Below, one piece after another: positions 6,182-25,216 of a DNA stretch of 64,000 bases; position 1 is the stretch's first letter; each line of letters opens with the position of its first letter. The notes below the pieces were generated by a model that worked only from the letters and a program-made list of their open reading frames with translations, was not told the DNA's origin and did no database searches. The DNA comes from Candidatus Omnitrophota bacterium. GTDB lineage: Bacteria; Omnitrophota; Gorgyraeia; Zapsychrales; JAHFFX01. Made by a program: the position numbers and the translations under genes. The stretch covers positions 704-64,703 of the forward strand of contig JAHFFW010000003.1 in the NCBI GenBank assembly GCA_023247725.1. Direction: 5' to 3'.

Positions 6182-7378
6182 ATGAAACAGAAGTATGATT
6201 TTCTTATTATAGGCTCGGGAATCATAGGCCTGACGATCGCGCATGCCATCAAACGCAAAGAGCCGATGGCTTCTATCTTGATTATAGAGAAAGAGAAGGA
6301 CGTGGCATGCCACGCCTCCGGACGCAATAGCGGTGTCTTGCATGCGGGATTTTATTACACCGCCGATAGCCTCAAAGCCAAATTTACCATCGCCGGTAAC
6401 CGCCTCATGAAAGAATACTGCCGGGCGAAGAAACTTCCTATCAATGAATGCGGAAAACTGGTCGTCGCCTCCAATGCCAACGAACTCACGAGCCTTTTTG
6501 AACTGGAAAAACGCGGCAAGGCCAATGGTTCGAATATCTGCATCATCTCAGAAAAAGAGGCCATGACCAAGGAGCCCAATGTCCGAACCCATCAATACGC
6601 CTTGTTCTCGCCAGAAACGGCGAGTATTGATCCCGTCGCTGTATGCCAGAGCTTAAAAAGTGATTTGAAAGAATCCGGCGTGGAATTCCGGTTCCAGACT
6701 TCCTATCTTGCTCACGATCATAACGTCGTCAAAACAAACCAAGGCGAACTATCGGCGACCAAAATCATCAATTGTGCCGGACTCTATGCTGACAAACTCG
6801 CCAAGGATTTTGGTTATGGACACCAGTATACGATGATCCCCTTTAAAGGACTTTACCTCAAATATACAAAAAATAAAACCGATGTAAAAATGCACATTTA
6901 TCCAGTGCCTAATCTCAAAAATCCCTTTCTCGGCGTCCATTTTACCATCACGGTCCGACAAGAAATCAAAATTGGGCCTACCGCCATTCCGGCCTTGTGG
7001 CGAGAAAATTACAACGGATTCGACAATTTTCAAATCACAGAATTAATCCATATCTTAAATCATGAGACCAGACTTTATCTGACCAATGCATTTGGATTCC
7101 GGGAGCTCGCTCACACAGAGATAAAAAAATATAATAAAAGTTATTTTATCAACCTCGCCTTGCAGATGGTTCAAAAGATTGACCCGAACGGATTCACCGA
7201 GTTCACTTCTCCCGGCATTCGGGCCCAATTATTGGACACCCGGGAAAATCGACTTGTTCAGGACTTTATTGTGGAAGGTGATCGAGACAGTGTGCATGTT
7301 CTGAACGCGGTGTCGCCGGCTTTCACCTGTGCGTTTCCATTTACTGAGTTTGTTGTCAACAAGTATATCCTTATATAA
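6182..7378 (+). CDS. lhgO: FAD-dependent L-2-hydroxyglutarate oxidase family protein (LhgO-like)
   Basis: N-terminal DFLIIGSGIIGL dinucleotide fold; CHASGRNSGVLHAGFYY and AKFTIAGNRLM closely resemble LhgO. Confidence 0.75.
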   Translation: MKQKYDFLIIGSGIIGLTIAHAIKRKEPMASILIIEKEKDVACHASGRNSGVLHAGFYYTADSLKAKFTIAGNRLMKEYCRAKKLPINECGKLVVASNANELTSLFELEKRGKANGSNICIISEKEAMTKEPNVRTHQYALFSPETASIDPVAVCQSLKSDLKESGVEFRFQTSYLAHDHNVVKTNQGELSATKIINCAGLYADKLAKDFGYGHQYTMIPFKGLYLKYTKNKTDVKMHIYPVPNLKNPFLGVHFTITVRQEIKIGPTAIPALWRENYNGFDNFQITELIHILNHETRLYLTNAFGFRELAHTEIKKYNKSYFINLALQMVQKIDPNGFTEFTSPGIRAQLLDTRENRLVQDFIVEGDRDSVHVLNAVSPAFTCAFPFTEFVVNKYILI

Positions 7379-7386
7379 GCACATGA

Positions 7387-7535
7387 TGTGCGGATATTTT
7401 TCAAAAAACAGATTTAACGCGGATAATGCAGATTGCACGCAGATGGTCGCGGATTCAATCAGCGAAAATCTGCGCCCGCCTGCCGGCAGGCAGGTTTGAT
7501 CCGCGTGAATCTGCGTTAAATAAAAAACCCGCACA
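7387..7535. repeat. About 150-bp imperfect palindrome built from direct and inverted CGC(R)GAT heptamers around a perfect CCTGCCGGCAGG core
   Basis: Inverted pairs: tgtgcgg/ccgcaca, atttaacgc/gcgttaaat, cgcggat/atccgcg and cgcagat/atctgcg (several copies). Lies in the 280-bp lhgO-nfu gap. Confidence 0.45.
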
Positions 7536-7608
7536 CAGCGTATAAGCTCAATATTTATAGCTATTTAAAGCCTATTGCCAAAATAAGTTATATTTTGAAG
7601 TATTTTGC

Positions 7609-17579: not shown

Positions 17580-17862
17580 CAGTGTAAAGTGTTAAGTGAA
17601 AAGTGTTAAGAGGAAACCCTTAATGATCGAGGCACTTGCCTAAACTAAAAACCATTTTGCATACTTCAACACATCAATGTTACGGTAAAGATTTCGTTCG
17701 TGAAGTCGAGGGTTTTTTGATAAACCTTTAATTTTTCAAAATCAAATTCAAAATCGTTTTGAGTCATGCTTCCTCCTTTGACTGATTGTCTGTCCAGTTG
17801 AAATGGGAAAACCGAACACTCAAAACACTTTTAACACTTAACACTTGGCACTTTACACTAAA
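17580..17862. mobile_element. MITE/IVS-like element of about 285 bp. Imperfect terminal inverted repeats built on AGTGTAAAGTG...AAGTGTTAAG enclose a truncated four-helix-bundle ORF.
   Basis: Left arm 17580-17610 (cagtgtaaagtgttaagtgaaaagtgttaag). Right arm 17816-17862 is its reverse complement (cttaacacttttaacacttaacacttggcactttacact) and overlaps the ispH stop. Confidence 0.45.
17666..17767 (-). pseudogene. Truncated four-helix-bundle protein (23S rRNA intervening-sequence protein / DGR Avd family), 33 codons
   Basis: MTQNDFEFDFEKLKVYQKTLDFTNEIFTVTLMC* matches helix 1 of the family (FE.L.VYQ.a..l..EIy..T). Perfect AGGAGGA RBS 5 nt upstream. No continuation in any frame. Confidence 0.45.
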
Positions 17863-18919: not shown

Positions 18920-20158
18920 ATGTCGAAATCACCCAGCCAGCTGCCACCACGTCGCAAAACTCCGAGTGTTCCCATAGGGCCTGTTCAATTGGGAAGTCAG
19001 CATCCGGTTGCCATCCAATCGATGACCGATACTCCGACCTCTGAGGTCGTCAAAACCCTTGAACAAACCGTTGAATTAATTGAAGCCGGCTCTGAGCTGG
19101 TTCGCTGGACGGTCAATGATGACGACGCGGCCAAGGCCGTTCCTCATATCATCCAGCGCCTGAGAGATCGCGGATTGAAGACTCCGATTATTGGTGATTT
19201 CCATTTTAATGGCCACACCCTTTTGGCCAAGTATCCGCAAACAGCTAAGACCTTGGATAAATACCGGATTAACCCCGGCAATGTGGGCCGCCGGGAAAGG
19301 CACGATGAGAATTTTGCCGAGATCATTCGTATCGCGATCGCCAACGGCAAGGCTGTGCGCATCGGCGTCAACTGGGGGTCGCTCGATCAAGAATTATTGA
19401 CAGAACTGATGAATAAAAATGCCCGACTAAGAAACCCCCAACCAGCCCGCGAGGTGACGATCGAGGCCATGATGCAATCCGGGTTACGAAGCGCCCAGTA
19501 CGCGCAAAAGCTTGGGCTTCCCAAAAACAAAATTGTCCTCAGCTGCAAAATGTCGGTTTTACAAGACATGGTCGAAGTTTATACAAAAATTGCCAGGCAA
19601 TGTGATTATGCGTTACACTTAGGTTTAACCGAAGCCGGCGGTGATATTCAAGGAATCGCGGCAAGTTCTGCCGCCCTCGCGATTTTATTGCAGCAGGGAA
19701 TCGGTGATACGATTCGGGTTTCTCTAACACCCCAGCCCAAGGTCAAACGCTCCCGAGAAGTGGAGGTCGCCAAGGCGATTCTCCAGGCCATGGGTTTGCG
19801 GTACTTCAAACCGAGCGTCACCAGCTGTCCTGGTTGTGGTCGCACCTCCAGCACTTACTTTCAAGACCTCGCTCAAGATATCAATGCCCACATCGGAGTC
19901 AAGATGTCGCAATGGCGACAACTATATCCAGGCGTAGAAAAGCTCAAAATCGCGGTGATGGGCTGTGTCGTCAATGGTCCCGGAGAATCCCGTCATGCGG
20001 ATATCGGCATCAGTTTACCAGGCATGAGTGAAAATCCAGTAGCCCCCGTTTATGTTGACGGGAAGGAATTTGTGGTTTTGCGCGGAGAACGGATCAAAGA
20101 TGAATTCATCAGTATTCTAGAAAAACACATTCAGAAAAAATTTGGGAATAATTTTTAA
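18920..20158 (+). CDS. ispG: HMBPP synthase IspG/GcpE. The ATG at 18920 is preferred over the upstream ATG at 18833 given by the ORF track.
   Basis: GcpE TIM-barrel plus a C-terminal 4Fe-4S domain (CPGCGRTS...GCVVNGPGE), with an insert domain between them. Confidence 0.9.
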   Translation: MSKSPSQLPPRRKTPSVPIGPVQLGSQHPVAIQSMTDTPTSEVVKTLEQTVELIEAGSELVRWTVNDDDAAKAVPHIIQRLRDRGLKTPIIGDFHFNGHTLLAKYPQTAKTLDKYRINPGNVGRRERHDENFAEIIRIAIANGKAVRIGVNWGSLDQELLTELMNKNARLRNPQPAREVTIEAMMQSGLRSAQYAQKLGLPKNKIVLSCKMSVLQDMVEVYTKIARQCDYALHLGLTEAGGDIQGIAASSAALAILLQQGIGDTIRVSLTPQPKVKRSREVEVAKAILQAMGLRYFKPSVTSCPGCGRTSSTYFQDLAQDINAHIGVKMSQWRQLYPGVEKLKIAVMGCVVNGPGESRHADIGISLPGMSENPVAPVYVDGKEFVVLRGERIKDEFISILEKHIQKKFGNNF

Positions 20159-20164
20159 AACACT

Positions 20165-20662
20165 ATGGTCTTAGCTAATAACTTTCAAGAGATTAATGAA
20201 TGGGACAAAAAGGCCTTTCGCTTAATGGCCTCAGATGTGGTTTTAGCCTCGTTGATGTTCATGGCGGCCTTGTCCGTCTGGTTATTCCAGGATCGTGCCA
20301 TCGATCACCTCTTTAAAATTTTTTTCTACATTGGTTTGGGAACCGCCCTCCTTTATGGCGGGAATCGCGCCAAAATCTATTTGATATATTTTGCTCTCGG
20401 AAATTTCTTCTACGATCTTTGGGATGCGATTCCTTATGCGGATTCCATCTCTATCCTCCAATCGATTGTCATCAATGGGATCATTGTTGCTTTTTGTCTG
20501 AAATCTTTCACAAAACAGCAGATGTTTCCTTTCGTGATCGTGTATACGTTAGCTCTCTATTTGCTGCCGGCCGTTGGGCTTCCTTTCATCAATCGCCCAT
20601 ACAAAGATGTCAAAAATCCTATACCGAAAAGGAAATCCAATTTATTCAAAGCCGTGGACTAA
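20165..20662 (+). CDS. Hypothetical integral membrane protein (about 4 TM)
   Basis: 165 aa with four hydrophobic segments. First gene of a tightly packed eight-gene + strand operon after ispG. Confidence 0.5.
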   Translation: MVLANNFQEINEWDKKAFRLMASDVVLASLMFMAALSVWLFQDRAIDHLFKIFFYIGLGTALLYGGNRAKIYLIYFALGNFFYDLWDAIPYADSISILQSIVINGIIVAFCLKSFTKQQMFPFVIVYTLALYLLPAVGLPFINRPYKDVKNPIPKRKSNLFKAVD

Positions 20663-20694
20663 AACAAATTTCTACCCATGAGGGAGAACTTTTG

Positions 20695-21147
20695 ATGAAG
20701 GCTCCCGCCGGATGGAGATTCCTTGACTCCGATGATATGAAAACTTTAGATTCTCATTTTGAAGACGATTTTGCCTTATTGCACGAGGACTATCCCCGGA
20801 TGATTTATGTGACCGGCGCGCTTTTAAAAAGTGATTTACAAAGCAAGGAGAACGACCTTCACCAAATGGTTTCAAACGCTCCCAAAGATTTTAGAGTTGT
20901 TAAAGATACCCGTGCCGCGATTGGTTCTTTTGATATTTACGACCTGTGGTGGGAAAATTCGGTTGGAAAAGAAAATTTTTTCGAAGGCGTAATGCTCGTT
21001 TATTTTCCACGTGACGGGATCACACTCTACGTCAATCAAATCCCCAGAGATGACTACGAATATGTTCATAAATCGATTGAGGAGGCGATTTTATCGATTG
21101 ATTTTAATAACTACCCATCCCGAAGCAACATGGAGGGACCGGATTGA
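20695..21147 (+). CDS. Hypothetical soluble protein, 150 aa. The track's 20419 start overlaps the previous gene in another frame and was trimmed.
   Basis: GGGAG RBS 8 nt before the ATG at 20695. No recognisable motif. Confidence 0.45.
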   Translation: MKAPAGWRFLDSDDMKTLDSHFEDDFALLHEDYPRMIYVTGALLKSDLQSKENDLHQMVSNAPKDFRVVKDTRAAIGSFDIYDLWWENSVGKENFFEGVMLVYFPRDGITLYVNQIPRDDYEYVHKSIEEAILSIDFNNYPSRSNMEGPD

Positions 21148-21149
21148 CA

Positions 21150-21713
21150 ATGACAAGATTACAAAAAAATCTTCACCGATATTCTCGGATTCTTAATGTG
21201 TTTATCACGATCGGGCTATACGCCGCTATCTTTGGCTGCAGTTCGAATCCCCTCAAGGTCAACAAGAAGACCCTTGCGCGTTATGAAAAAATCCAACCTT
21301 ACAAAACCGATTTGGAATTGGCCGCGGCTTTAAGTTTATTTCATCAGAGCAAAGGCTATTGGTCACAAAATCCCGGAGAATATGCCGCCTTTTTAAATCC
21401 TGGCAATCAGGTAAAAAGCACCGGCGTCGGCTTCCTCGCGCATTATGAAATCATCGATGACCGGGTCCTCTTAGTGACCTATGAATTGCCTCCTCCGGTC
21501 AATAAAAAATTCCGGCACCATGCTTTTAAACTGGTACCTGTTCCGGATAAAAAGAATGCTTACCTTTTTTCTCCAATGGAGCCGGTTCTGGAACCTCTCG
21601 TCATGGAACCTTATGAAATTGAGTGGAAGGACGGCCAGGCATTTTACCTGCGGACAACCGAGGTGTCCGCCCAGGAAAACCCTGAATTGAAACCCGCGAT
21701 TCCGTCTCCTTAA
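21150..21713 (+). CDS. Hypothetical lipoprotein
   Basis: Signal-like N terminus with an AIFGC lipobox; RBS GGAGGGA. Confidence 0.5.
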   Translation: MTRLQKNLHRYSRILNVFITIGLYAAIFGCSSNPLKVNKKTLARYEKIQPYKTDLELAAALSLFHQSKGYWSQNPGEYAAFLNPGNQVKSTGVGFLAHYEIIDDRVLLVTYELPPPVNKKFRHHAFKLVPVPDKKNAYLFSPMEPVLEPLVMEPYEIEWKDGQAFYLRTTEVSAQENPELKPAIPSP

Positions 21714-21733
21714 TTCTATAGGGAAAGGATTTC

Positions 21734-22378
21734 ATGCCAACCTGGGATCTTAAACAAAAAATTCCAGAACAAGTCAAGACCATTGTCGGCGCCAGCGGTT
21801 TTCGTGAGCATGCCGATCGATTCGTCCGTCATCGAGAAGAATTGGAACAGATCATTCAATTGATTTTTATTGAAACGGAGGAGGGCCAATCAAAAACTCT
21901 GGTGAATTTTACCGTCAATCTAGGAATCTATTACCGGTTTATTCCGCTATTATCCATGCCGTCGTCTCCCCAAGAGGCGGGCAAGCCCGTTGCCCAAGAT
22001 TTTATTCCCAACGAATGGGAATGCCATCTGCGGACGTGCCTTTTGAGAAAAAAATTGAATTGGGTTGACAACCTTGGACTTTTTTTTCGATATCAGCGCG
22101 ACGATCCGCACAAAGCTCTGTGGCAAATCTCGGATGAAAAAACATTGGAAATGGCTGTGCAGGAATTTCAAAACCAGTTTCAAAGACAAGCGCTTACCTG
22201 GTTCGAAGAATTTTCTGACCTGGGGAGAGCCTATGCATTTATTCAAAATACGCCGGAAACGAGCCCATATCAAGGAGGGACCTTTGGCTGCGGGATGTCC
22301 CGCTCTCCGGTCCGGAAACATTTTCAACATTATTTTGCCCAAAGATTAAACCATAAAAACCCATTACTCTCGGACTAA
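21734..22378 (+). CDS. Hypothetical protein, 214 aa
   Basis: W/F-rich soluble protein, loosely reminiscent of DUF4304-type proteins (unverified). Confidence 0.45.
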   Translation: MPTWDLKQKIPEQVKTIVGASGFREHADRFVRHREELEQIIQLIFIETEEGQSKTLVNFTVNLGIYYRFIPLLSMPSSPQEAGKPVAQDFIPNEWECHLRTCLLRKKLNWVDNLGLFFRYQRDDPHKALWQISDEKTLEMAVQEFQNQFQRQALTWFEEFSDLGRAYAFIQNTPETSPYQGGTFGCGMSRSPVRKHFQHYFAQRLNHKNPLLSD

Positions 22379-22386
22379 CGATCTTC

Positions 22387-22851
22387 ATGCAATCGATGCT
22401 GAAAAATCCCATCATTATCCTCATTGTGATCTTAGCTGCCGGGGTCCTTATTCATCAATATCTCATCTTCCGGCGAATGCAAAAACTGCAAAAAAATTGG
22501 CAGCGAGTCGCGAGCTACAGCTCTGCAACCCTTAGCCGTGTTCACTGTGGCATAGACTGGGGATGGTGGTATGGATTTTGCATGTTCCGGACGGAACCAA
22601 GTGAAATGGAAAAGATTCAAAATTCTTTCAGCCTCATCCAATGTGAATCCTACCGGGATGGAGAGATGAATCCGGACAATCCCCACGAATGCTTCGCTTA
22701 TAAACCCTCACACTATTGTTCGCCTTTATCGCAAACTGGCTCCAGCTTCTTCTACGTGACTCAGAATTTCGACCGGGAGCACAAAAAACAGTGGGACGGC
22801 CTCATTTATAATCAAACCACGAAACAGGGCTGTGTGGATGTGTGGCCGTAA
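22387..22851 (+). CDS. Hypothetical membrane-anchored Cys-rich protein (7 Cys)
   Basis: N-terminal TM helix, then CGIDWGWWYGFC ... QCESY ... HECF ... YCSP ... GCVDVWP. Confidence 0.45.
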   Translation: MQSMLKNPIIILIVILAAGVLIHQYLIFRRMQKLQKNWQRVASYSSATLSRVHCGIDWGWWYGFCMFRTEPSEMEKIQNSFSLIQCESYRDGEMNPDNPHECFAYKPSHYCSPLSQTGSSFFYVTQNFDREHKKQWDGLIYNQTTKQGCVDVWP

Positions 22852-22951
22852 AGGAAAACCATTGCCTTTTATCCTCGCGAGATTTCGCTGACCCTGGCGC
22901 GGTCAAAAACCGCCGGAGCGGCCATTATTCCGCCGGGATGTTTAACTTTTT

Positions 22952-23236
22952 TTGACCGTGATCAGTTTTATCTTCTTCATTTATGGAATCATCTCAGGAA
23001 GGATTCTCAATGTCTGGGATTTCATTCACCATCCTATAAACTTAAAAGCGATTCCGCCGGATGCCATTGCCATCTCGCCCGGAGCGCAAAAAATCTATAC
23101 GCTCCTTTATTGGGTTAACCTGGCGATCTTTTTGGGAATGGGTTTGGCTTTTTTGTATTTGACCCTCACGTACTCAGAGCCGGGTTCAACCTTTGAACCG
23201 AAAGACTCTTCCGAAGAAGGAAAGCCCCATGAATGA
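22952..23236 (+). CDS. Hypothetical small membrane protein (2 TM); start uncertain (TTG/GTG)
   Basis: 94 aa with two hydrophobic segments. Confidence 0.35.
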   Translation: MTVISFIFFIYGIISGRILNVWDFIHHPINLKAIPPDAIAISPGAQKIYTLLYWVNLAIFLGMGLAFLYLTLTYSEPGSTFEPKDSSEEGKPHE

Positions 23237-23768
23237 TTCCAACACAACGATGACTTGGTTTGTCATTGCCTTCCTTTTTGTCTGGCTTGCCTGGCCCAAC
23301 TCAAAGGCATCCGCCGAAGTCTTCGTTCTCAAATCCGGGAAGACCATCACGGGCGAGGTGATCGACGACAAAGATGGCCTCATCAAGGTGAAGGAAAAAG
23401 ACCGGATCGTTTCGTTCAAAAAGAATCTCCTCGAGACTGATCCATCCGCCGCTGCCAAACGCAAAATCCGCCAGGAAGGCATCATGATTATCCGTGGACA
23501 AGCATCATCCTCTTTAACGCCGTATTCGCCCCGCGAGTCCCGAATGTGGGTGGAAATCTTTATTACCTCCTGGTGCCCGTATTGCCGAAAACTGGAACAA
23601 TTCTTGAAGGCAGAGCACATCCCTTATCGACGTTACGACATCGAAGCGAATCCGCAGGCGAAACGGGTCTATGATCAATTCGGCATTCCCGGAGTGCCGG
23701 TTATTCGAATCGGCTCAAAACTTATTAGCGGGTTTGATCAAACGGCCATTCTCAATGCGTTGAAATAA
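23229..23768 (+). CDS. Secreted glutaredoxin/NrdH-like thioredoxin-fold protein
   Basis: Signal peptide (WFVIAFLFVWLAWPNSKASA) and a C-terminal Grx domain with WCPYC. AAGGAAAG RBS. Confidence 0.6.
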   Translation: MNDSNTTMTWFVIAFLFVWLAWPNSKASAEVFVLKSGKTITGEVIDDKDGLIKVKEKDRIVSFKKNLLETDPSAAAKRKIRQEGIMIIRGQASSSLTPYSPRESRMWVEIFITSWCPYCRKLEQFLKAEHIPYRRYDIEANPQAKRVYDQFGIPGVPVIRIGSKLISGFDQTAILNALK

Positions 23769-23797
23769 GTTCCCGTTCTGACTTTTCGAATGAATCC

Positions 23798-24184
23798 ATG
23801 AGGACCCGCATCCAGATAAAATTTGTAGCGATTTTTCTGGGATTACTGCAAGCTGCAGGAATTCAATCCGTATTAGCGTCTGGCCTTTTACCCAAAAAAA
23901 ACAAGGGACAGAAGGCCAATGCCGCCCTAGAACATCCCTTATCCAAACCGCCGGCGGATTATCCGCTCTTTGTACCGCAAAAAAATGTCCTGGCCGAGCA
24001 AACTCGGCAAAAAGCTGCCCGGAAAAGACAGAACCTCCAGACTGAAATTCAAAAGGCCCATCAGCAAGAAAAAAACGCCGAGCTCAAAGCCCGGCGAAAA
24101 GAGCAAAAAATAATGGACCGCCAGCAACAGCAGGCGATCGAGGAAATCAAAAGGGCCAGACAGAAACAACGCCACAAACTCTAG
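23798..24184 (+). CDS. Secreted K/Q/R-rich coiled-coil protein
   Basis: Signal peptide, then a low-complexity charged helix (QQEKNAELKARRKEQK...). Confidence 0.45.
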   Translation: MRTRIQIKFVAIFLGLLQAAGIQSVLASGLLPKKNKGQKANAALEHPLSKPPADYPLFVPQKNVLAEQTRQKAARKRQNLQTEIQKAHQQEKNAELKARRKEQKIMDRQQQQAIEEIKRARQKQRHKL

Positions 24185-24210: not shown

Positions 24211-24695
24211 CTAATTGGTCGCGGCGAGCAGCTCGTTAAGGCAATCGAGGACCTCTTCATGATGAGTTTTCGGTCGGACCTTGGGGAAGATTTTGGCAAT
24301 CTTGCCATTTTTATCAATAATAAATGTCGTACGCTCAACTCCCATGTATTTGCGTCCCATGAACGTCTTTTGCTGCCAGACCCCATAATCCTGCAACATC
24401 TTTTTGTCGGGATCGCTCAATAAGAGAAAGGGGAGATTAAATTTTTGGATGAATCGTTCGTGGCTCTGAACACTATCCGGGCTAACTCCCAGAATTATGG
24501 AGTCCTTGCCAGTGATGGATTTGATCGCGTCCCGAAAATTGCAAGCCTCGACGGTACAACCGGGGTATCATCCTTAGGGTAAAAATACAGGACCACATTT
24601 TTATTACCGCGAAAATCTTTGAGCGAAACCTGACCTCCATGCGAGGCTCGCAGGGAAAATTCTGGCGCCAGATTGCCTTCCTTGAGTTTAGTCAT
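24211..24695 (-). pseudogene. bcp: Peroxiredoxin Bcp (AhpC/TSA family), disrupted by a 1-nt frameshift in a G4/C4 run at 24551-24554, exactly at the peroxidatic Cys codon
   Basis: The N-terminal ORF gives ...[18 protein letters not shown].... Shifting one nt restores [15 protein letters not shown]...DKKMLQDYGVWQQK... through to the C-terminal ORF 24211..24420. Confidence 0.75.
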
Positions 24696-24760: not shown

Positions 24761-25216
24761 TCAATATGGTTTCCAAATTTTTTGTTGGGGATTGTAGATC
24801 ACTTGCCGCGAATTGTCCATTCCGTCTTCCAGGGGCCACGCGGTCATTTCGAGTTTATTTCCATCGAGGTCATAAAAATACAGGGACCAGGATTTCGGCC
24901 TTTTCTTGGCAAACTCAATCCTGACGGCGTGCGATTCCAGGTGTTGGATCATGGCGTCGAAATCCTTGGCATGAATCCGAAAGGAAAAATGGTTGGCGCC
25001 CAAACCTTCGTTTTCAAAAGGATGAAGCTTATGCAATTCCTTGGCCTGGATGAGGCCGATGAGAGACCCTCCACAATCGAGGAAATATTCGATGCCTGGC
25101 TTGGAAGGTTCTCGAGTGGTCACCTTCAGTCCAATAACCTTGCGGTAAAATTCCACCGCCTTATCAATGTCCCGAACGTTGATGGCGACGTGGTCTATAC
25201 CTTGAACTTTGATCAT
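24761..25216 (-). CDS. VOC/glyoxalase-family protein (lactoylglutathione lyase-like)
   Basis: 151 aa; [19 protein letters not shown] glyoxalase-fold N terminus. Confidence 0.7.

Follow-up and report, generated by a model that had tools for sequence, protein, structure and literature searches.

Eight open reading frames between ispG and bcp of an Omnitrophota bacterium probably represent a mosaic of accessory genes in a hypervariable slot

The stretch of DNA analyzed here, referred to as the window, comprises 64,000 nucleotides (nt) from the genome of a Candidatus Omnitrophota bacterium, and contains a cluster of eight open reading frames (ORFs), denoted O1 to O8, at positions 20165-24184 of the + strand. 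The Omnitrophota phylum is part of the Planctomycetes-Verrucomicrobia-Chlamydiae (PVC) group; its members are uncultured, mostly ultra-small and show host-dependent traits (PMC10066038). The cluster lies between the stop codon of ispG at position 20158 and the convergent stop codon of bcp at position 24211. O1 follows ispG after 6 nt, the successive gaps between the ORFs measure 32, 2, 20, 8, 100, -8 and 29 nt, and a further 26 nt separate O8 from the bcp stop codon. With a spacing of -8 to 100 nt, the ORFs could be co-transcribed. An earlier note on this DNA had described the cluster as ending in a glutaredoxin (Grx)-like gene; that gene is O7, and the last gene is O8.

We compared the interval between ispG and bcp with 28 loci from related genomes, anchored on IspG at 60-76% identity. 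Most of these loci are labelled Candidatus Omnitrophota or come from mislabelled metagenome-assembled genomes (MAGs) of the same group, and in ∼22 of the 28, ispG is preceded by Fer2/IspH and/or followed by Bcp, glyoxalase, PHP and FolE. Between ispG and bcp there are 0 bp in L016 (the two genes overlap), 25 bp in L019, 0.2-2 kb in ∼12 loci, 4.05 kb in the window, ∼12 kb in L003/L006 and ∼14 kb in the L005/L010 genome. The slot is empty in some relatives and contains up to ∼20 unrelated genes in others. From these intervals 110 ORFs were extracted, 88 of which had no counterpart in any other interval; nine families were shared. The only ORFs of the window that recur in the interval are O7 (in two other genomes) and O1 (in one other genome), both amid unrelated neighbours; when these neighbours were compared with O2, O3, O6 and O8, no similarity emerged (Smith-Waterman z<1). 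Conservation of the gene neighbourhood, which the earlier note had proposed as a check, was not found: the order O1 to O8 is kept in none of the ∼22 relatives that share the backbone. The proteins encoded in the window are all singletons when clustered at 90% identity.

The genes of the interval evolve much faster than those around it, since the orthologs of O7 and O1 share 41-47% identity between the same genomes in which the flanking proteins share 74-85%. The interval of many relatives opens with a gene that differs each time but begins at or just past the ispG stop codon. The slot is devoid of tRNA, integrase and transposase genes and of boundary repeats. In conserved syntenic flanks, genome-specific and fast-diverging content and the lack of an integrase, it is similar to the flexible genomic islands or hotspots found between core genes. 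It differs from them in its small size (0-14 kb), in being seen at family-level divergence and not within species, and in an apparent coupling of new genes to the ispG 3' end. A DUF5674 gene followed by a gene of ∼100 residues forms the best-conserved cassette of this slot; the pair recurs in the intervals of three relatives (L003 6201-6854, L005 6110-6768, L015 11221-11846) but is missing from the window. The L032 interval contains two overlapping ORFs of ∼90 residues (7035-7569) that are toxin-antitoxin-like by size and arrangement only.

Across positions 20165-24184, ORFs of at least 90 residues take up 96% of the + strand, compared with a mean of 17% and a maximum of 54% in 1000 composition-preserving resamples. 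A codon model trained on 34 housekeeping genes within the window yielded coding scores of 0.04-0.16 per codon for O1 to O8, compared with 0.21 ± 0.05 for the housekeeping genes. For each of the eight ORFs its own frame was the best-scoring one and the other frames were negative. Because of this coverage relative to the resamples and of the own-frame coding scores, we consider the ORFs to be real, beyond what chance would produce. Together with the 6-nt distance from the ispG stop codon, these data confirm eight packed + strand ORFs right after ispG, as had been reported before. The G+C content is 40-42% at 20.0-21.4 kb, compared with 48-53% in the flanks, and no Rfam match was found in the window.

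Homologs were searched for by phmmer with a concatenate of O1 through the N-terminal part of O7 against 1.84 billion representative proteins and, for O8, by a word-indexed search of 5.8 billion sequences. O2, O3, O6 and O8 had no detectable relatives in these sets, and no family match was obtained for O1, O2, O3, O5, O6 or O8 in Pfam, NCBIfam, PADLOC or PHROGs. The cluster as a whole gave no PADLOC match, and its sole significant PHROGs matches fell on the thioredoxin-type domain of O7, which is generic. Of the eight products, six are of the envelope type (O1, O3, O5, O6, O7 and O8), with signal peptides and lipobox assigned by eye and hydropathy. The label "envelope proteins" given to the whole cluster by the earlier note therefore holds for these six but not for O2 and O4, which are without an export signal. 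Likewise, its statement that no family could be named stands for most of the ORFs but not for O4, which touches DUF4304.

O1 (20165..20662, + strand) encodes a polytopic membrane protein of 165 residues; it contains 3-5 hydrophobic segments, and its cytoplasmic N-terminus is conserved (MVLAxNxxEINxWxxKAFR). Its sole relative, P0011, is 47% identical and is encoded within the ispG-bcp interval of L005/L010, 5 kb from ispG and among unrelated neighbours. O2 (20695..21147, + strand) encodes an acidic, soluble protein of 150 residues whose frame is the best of all six (coding score 0.089); it matched only itself, and nothing was found for it in Pfam, NCBIfam, PADLOC, PHROGs or the PDB. O3 (21150..21713, + strand; coding score 0.156) encodes a predicted lipoprotein of 187 residues with the lipobox AIFG/C at Cys30. 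Judged by eye, the sequence MTRLQKNLHRYSRILNVFITIGLYAAIFG followed by Cys fits the pattern [LVI][ASTVIF][GAS]C and is preceded by a positively charged n-region and a hydrophobic h-region. Like O2, O3 matched only itself.

O4 (21734..22378, + strand) encodes a cytoplasmic, DUF4304-like protein of 214 residues. Its score against DUF4304 (PF14137) was 23.0 bits (E=8e-5), just below the gathering threshold of 23.2 bits. The search returned ∼23 weak relatives with 20-33% identity, and DUF4304 was matched by 20 of the 24 aligned sequences of the O4 family (O4 included), with aligned motifs. Common to O4 and DUF4304 are the length and the motifs LGxYYxFIP, PxExxCHxR, DIW, WFxxFSDL and FGxG..SPxR. The AlphaFold2 model of O4 displays an alpha+beta fold with a predicted local distance difference test (pLDDT) value of 86; it had no Foldseek match in the PDB at E<0.1, and the PDB sequence search was likewise empty. 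Neither a function nor a solved structure of DUF4304 was found in literature and PDB searches. A metagenome scan with O4 returned no relatives, and those O4 relatives that were checked for their context are encoded on short contigs only. One of the 24 aligned sequences also matches Imm74, which we take as a lead towards immunity-type proteins and nothing more.

O5 (22387..22851, + strand) encodes a protein of 154 residues that, according to hydropathy and Cys count, consists of an N-terminal membrane anchor and an extracytoplasmic domain with six Cys residues, one fewer than previously stated. The membrane anchoring that had been proposed for it is supported. The sole relative of O5, P0013, is distant (32% identity), and all six Cys residues are aligned and conserved in it. 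P0013 is encoded on a 1.7-kb contig with one complete neighbour gene, which has no Pfam match, and two cut flanking genes that were not searched; a metagenome scan with the O5/P0013 alignment returned no relatives. The 100-nt gap between O5 and O6 showed no significant RNA fold (z=-0.7).

O6 (22952..23236, + strand) would encode a protein of 94 residues with two hydrophobic segments, starts with TTG and overlaps the start of O7 by 8 nt. Its coding score is 0.095 and the other five frames are negative. Public assemblies do not call it, phmmer found no match to it, and the protein library does not contain even O6 itself. The status of O6 as a gene is uncertain, and it is the weakest of the eight. 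O8 (23798..24184, + strand; coding score 0.147) encodes a protein of 128 residues whose N-terminus resembles a signal peptide and whose tail is rich in K, Q and R and probably helical; it matched only itself and no family. A strong terminator-like hairpin of 9 bp, seven of them G-C pairs, followed by a T-run, is located on the - strand at 24076-24096, inside O8 and 115 nt downstream of the bcp stop codon; it could serve as a transcription terminator of bcp.

It is unlikely that some of the relative-less ORFs (O6 and possibly O2, O3 and O8) are decaying or chance frames and that the count of eight genes is inflated. The missing homologs of these four, coding scores below those of the housekeeping genes, the TTG start of O6 and its omission from public gene calls, and the minus-strand hairpin within O8 all agree with such an explanation. 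What speaks against it are ORF lengths and a coverage far above chance, the consistent preference of each ORF for its own frame, and the well-formed lipoprotein and signal sequences of O3 and O8.

O7 (23229..23768, + strand) encodes an exported Grx-like protein of 179 residues with a hydrophobic N-terminus, and it is the only member of the cluster with a recognizable catalytic domain. The predicted signal peptide spans about residues 1-29 (hydropathy), with the h-region WFVIAFLFVWLAW followed by ASA/EV; if translation began at an alternative TTG at 23193, it would gain a positively charged n-region. Residues 120-178 of the 191-residue form match the Glutaredoxin family (PF00462) with 47.6 bits (cut-off 22.9 bits, E=1.9e-12), and both the active-site motif WCPYC and the cis-Pro motif G-V-P are present in the sequence. 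The scores against the YruB family (TIGR02196; 63.2 bits) and NrdH (TIGR02194; 30 bits) remain below the respective cut-offs of 88.55 and 85.75 bits, and the active site reads CPYC, not CVQC. No genes for a ribonucleotide reductase (nrdEF) were seen among the surveyed genes of the window. The classical glutathione-binding motifs TVP and GGxdD are replaced by GVP and SGFD in O7. Such a replacement is a trait of NrdH-type redoxins, which do not use glutathione.

The AlphaFold2 model of O7 (pLDDT 83.6 overall and ∼97 for the Grx domain) is composed of a signal-peptide helix (residues 6-21), a four-stranded beta domain (residues 30-64), a disordered linker (residues 77-105) and the Grx domain (residues 106-179). 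The best Foldseek matches of the Grx domain were Clostridium cGrx1 (7c10, template modelling (TM) score 0.93), the A. fulgidus Grx (3ic4), B. cereus BC3987 (3zij) and NrdH (1h75/4hs1). With the short cytoplasmic Grx/NrdH redoxins (7c10, 3zij, 1h75/4hs1; TIGR02196), O7 shares a thioredoxin fold of ∼75 residues (TM scores of 0.83-0.93, root-mean-square deviations of 1.0-1.6 Å), a CxxC site where helix 1 begins and, close to the C-terminus, an SGF motif like that of NrdH. These redoxins are, unlike O7, cytoplasmic and without a signal peptide or N-terminal domain, and the NrdH site is CVQC. The family match, the model and the Foldseek comparison thus bear out the signal-peptide-bearing Grx/NrdH-like WCPYC protein that had been recognized from the sequence.

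The N-terminal part of O7 weakly matches NF047433 (Lepto_7_Nterm, the N-terminal domain of LA_0442/LA_0875; E=1.9e-5) and has a single relative, P0018, in the phmmer search. Orthologs of O7 are P0018 (L003/L006, 41-43% identity) and P0037 (L007). The latter is a signal-peptide Grx with a CSYC site and without the beta domain.

E. coli Grx3 that was artificially exported to the periplasm supported DsbB-independent disulfide formation with glutathione disulfide, an experiment cited in PMC12453122. Like O7, the exported Grx3 combines a Grx fold and a CPYC site with a periplasmic location, and it provides a mechanistic precedent for what O7 may do; it is an engineered construct, whereas O7 is predicted to be naturally exported. 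By analogy with exported Grx3, O7 is most likely a periplasmic thiol-disulfide oxidoreductase that would act on exported Cys-containing proteins. O5 could conceivably be one of these clients of O7.

Using a family profile built from O7, P0018 and P0037, we obtained 117 matches, 110 of which contain WCPYC. At least 35 residues precede the CxxC site in 105 of the matches, and 100 of these contain a strongly hydrophobic 11-mer in this extension. Given these numbers, exported Grx-like proteins are common in metagenomes and across phyla, contrary to the earlier opinion that a periplasmic Grx-like fold is unusual. P0038-P0143 make up a large multi-phylum family in which a signal peptide, DUF4124, a linker and a WCPYC Grx domain follow one another. 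DUF4124 forms the N-terminal domain in many family members, which are annotated by homology only, as 'glutaredoxin family protein'. Those with DUF4124 or another small beta domain at the N-terminus share with O7 the order of parts, the motif V-E-I-(Y/F)-(V/I)-T-S-W-C-P-Y-C-R-K-L-E, the cis-Pro motif G-V-P and the C-terminal motif I-(R/S)-G-F. They differ from O7 in the N-terminal domain, which in O7 is not DUF4124 and is common to P0018 and P0040 only. Literature searches (DUF4124 and glutaredoxin; periplasmic or exported glutaredoxin) retrieved no characterized member of the exported WCPYC Grx family. Three members encoded on long contigs are solitary genes, located beside genes for an ATPase of a type II secretion system, an alpha-2-macroglobulin and a glutamate dehydrogenase, respectively; no partner gene is conserved in these three examples.

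The cluster is flanked by conserved backbone genes on both sides. The upstream anchor, ispG (18920..20158, + strand), was identified by the Pfam family GcpE and by the 60-76% identity of its product to IspG of 28 genomes. The mechanical ORF starts at TTG 18833 (441 residues); public calls and relatives favour ATG 18920 (412 residues). The conserved downstream anchor is bcp (24211..24695, - strand), which encodes a PrxQ-type peroxiredoxin, is convergent with O8 and matches NF006960 and PF00578 on two fragments. It is followed by a glyoxalase-family gene (24761..25216, - strand; PF00903), a conserved member of the backbone whose product shares 65-74% identity with those of relatives. Core biosynthesis accounts for the remainder of the window (MetH, NadA, MetX/W and the Suf, Moa, IspH/G, Fol, Fab, Arg and Lys genes). 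Public calls place a 33-residue ORF at 17666-17767 (- strand), between Fer2 and ispH, where the G+C content dips to ∼41%.

Three-frame translation revealed that the two halves of bcp are in different frames, with MTKLKEGNL...YFYPKDDTP as the N-terminal and GCTVEAC...LLAATN as the C-terminal part. At the junction the window reads CCGGTTGT (CCG-G-TTGT-AC), whereas the 11 relatives aligned at this site show CCN-GGN-TGY-AC (CCGGGTTGT in L003). One base is therefore missing (GGG to GG) at ∼24560-24561, in the Gly codon before the peroxidatic Cys, and the rest of the gene is undamaged. Together with the PF00903 match, these data confirm the frameshifted peroxiredoxin gene and the glyoxalase gene that had been noted on the convergent side. 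A selenoprotein was excluded as an explanation, as the frame changes and no in-frame TGA is involved. The Logan contig L001 (SRR14366766) is 100% identical across the site but is no independent proof of the frameshift, because it possibly derives from the same reads. Either bcp was inactivated very recently or the assembly is wrong here, and in both cases the frameshift is unrelated to the cluster. In L005 (2452-3379; the same as L010), IspH (LytB) is split into pieces of 95 and 190 residues, possibly by a frameshift in this essential gene; the split suggests assembly errors in these MAGs, which bears on the frameshift in bcp as well. In L012 the bcp gene is split, and in the sequence fetched for L021, L022, L027, L028 and L033 none was detected, so it seems dispensable in the lineage.

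Taken together, we consider it probable that O1 to O8 make up a mosaic of accessory genes that is specific to the lineage, evolves fast and fills a hypervariable slot between ispG and bcp, and that they form no dedicated functional system. This slot between two convergent core genes would be a site of gene turnover, and its genes would probably be transcribed by read-through from ispG, as suggested by the start of O1 6 nt past the ispG stop codon and by the tight spacing. Because differing first genes start at the ispG stop codon in relatives, whatever lands after ispG may be expressed in this way. The predicted envelope products would be a polytopic membrane protein, a lipoprotein, an anchored 6-Cys protein, a possible miniprotein with two transmembrane segments and two exported proteins, one of them Grx-like and the other basic and helical; relative-less O2 and DUF4304-like O4 would be cytoplasmic. 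The proximity of bcp is positional and not functional, since the two genes ispG and bcp abut in L016 and L019, and no bcp was detected in the sequence fetched for several relatives.

Several points weigh against this interpretation. The tight same-strand packing and the presence of 6-Cys O5 near the exported CPYC protein O7 would fit a functional link that sparse sampling could hide. The sole relative of O5 comes from a contig of 1.7 kb, and the comparison contains no close relative (>80% identity) of this genome. The case for co-transcription comes solely from how closely the genes are spaced, and the signal peptides were assigned by eye and hydropathy. Given the thin sampling of the lineage, O5 as a client of O7 is a residual possibility.

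The earlier note had proposed an envelope thiol-redox or stress module. In such an arrangement O1 to O8, or at least O5 to O8, would be dedicated to a common task, with O7 oxidizing, reducing or repairing O5 and partners, and would be tied to the peroxiredoxin. The predicted export of the CPYC Grx fold, the six Cys residues of O5 conserved in its relative, the tight packing on one strand and the occurrence of Grx-like genes in the same interval of three genomes are in line with this proposal. The Grx-like gene occurs in L003/L006 and L007, however, without O5, O6 and O8 (the L003/L006 interval that contains the O7 ortholog has no O5), and the complete gene beside that of P0013 has no Pfam match, its two cut flanking genes not having been searched. 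Moreover, three members of the wider O7 family are solitary genes, bcp lies directly against ispG in L016 and L019, and no bcp turned up in the sequence retrieved for L021, L022, L027, L028 and L033. By the note's own measure, gene order conserved in at least one relative, the module does not hold, as the order is found in none of the ∼22 relatives with the shared backbone, and we regard it as quite unlikely. A bolder proposal, which we rate as a long shot, is that the 3' end of ispG is a landing pad of Omnitrophota at which mostly envelope genes, some possibly arisen de novo (O2, O3, O6 and O8), would be captured into an essential transcript and turned over fast; within it, O5 to O8 would be a minimal periplasmic oxidative-folding set around the naturally exported glutaredoxin, replacing DsbA in such ultra-small bacteria.

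It is very doubtful that the cluster consists in part of orphan immunity-type genes from polymorphic-toxin systems, with O4 as a DUF4304 immunity-like protein and its small neighbours as further immunity- or effector-related products. Small, fast-diverging singletons in a variable slot would be expected of such genes, one O4-family sequence matches Imm74, a Pfam family of immunity proteins, and the ORF pair in the L032 interval is toxin-antitoxin-like in size and arrangement. Near the cluster in the window, however, there is no toxin, Rhs/YD, type VI or type VII secretion system gene and no nuclease domain; PADLOC matches are lacking, DUF4304 has no demonstrated immunity role, and immunity arrays are typically cytoplasmic, whereas six of the eight products here are envelope-targeted. 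It is hardly credible that the cluster is left over from a mobile element, be it a prophage, an integrative element or a transposon, that entered the genome downstream of ispG: the lower G+C content at 20.0-21.4 kb and the absence of the genes from relatives would agree with it, but there is no integrase, transposase, tRNA or flanking repeat, and unrelated content in nearly every relative fits recombination-driven turnover better than a single insertion. The lack of PADLOC matches, tRNA, repeats and an integrase, with PHROGs matches limited to the thioredoxin-type domain of O7, also rules against a defence-system or phage origin.

A mosaic of accessory genes places the cluster among known kinds: it belongs to an accessory-gene hotspot and contains a member of the exported WCPYC Grx-like family. 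The tempting annotation as an 'envelope redox operon' is removed as unsupported, and the ispG-bcp interval of Omnitrophota is now on record as a small, hypervariable slot. The turnover of secreted and membrane proteins in this slot may mirror the interaction of Omnitrophota with hosts or surroundings. The analysis also draws attention to a large, phylogenetically broad family of naturally exported WCPYC Grx-like proteins for which no published function was found; a single characterized member would tell whether bacteria use periplasmic Grx-type proteins alongside or instead of Dsb proteins.

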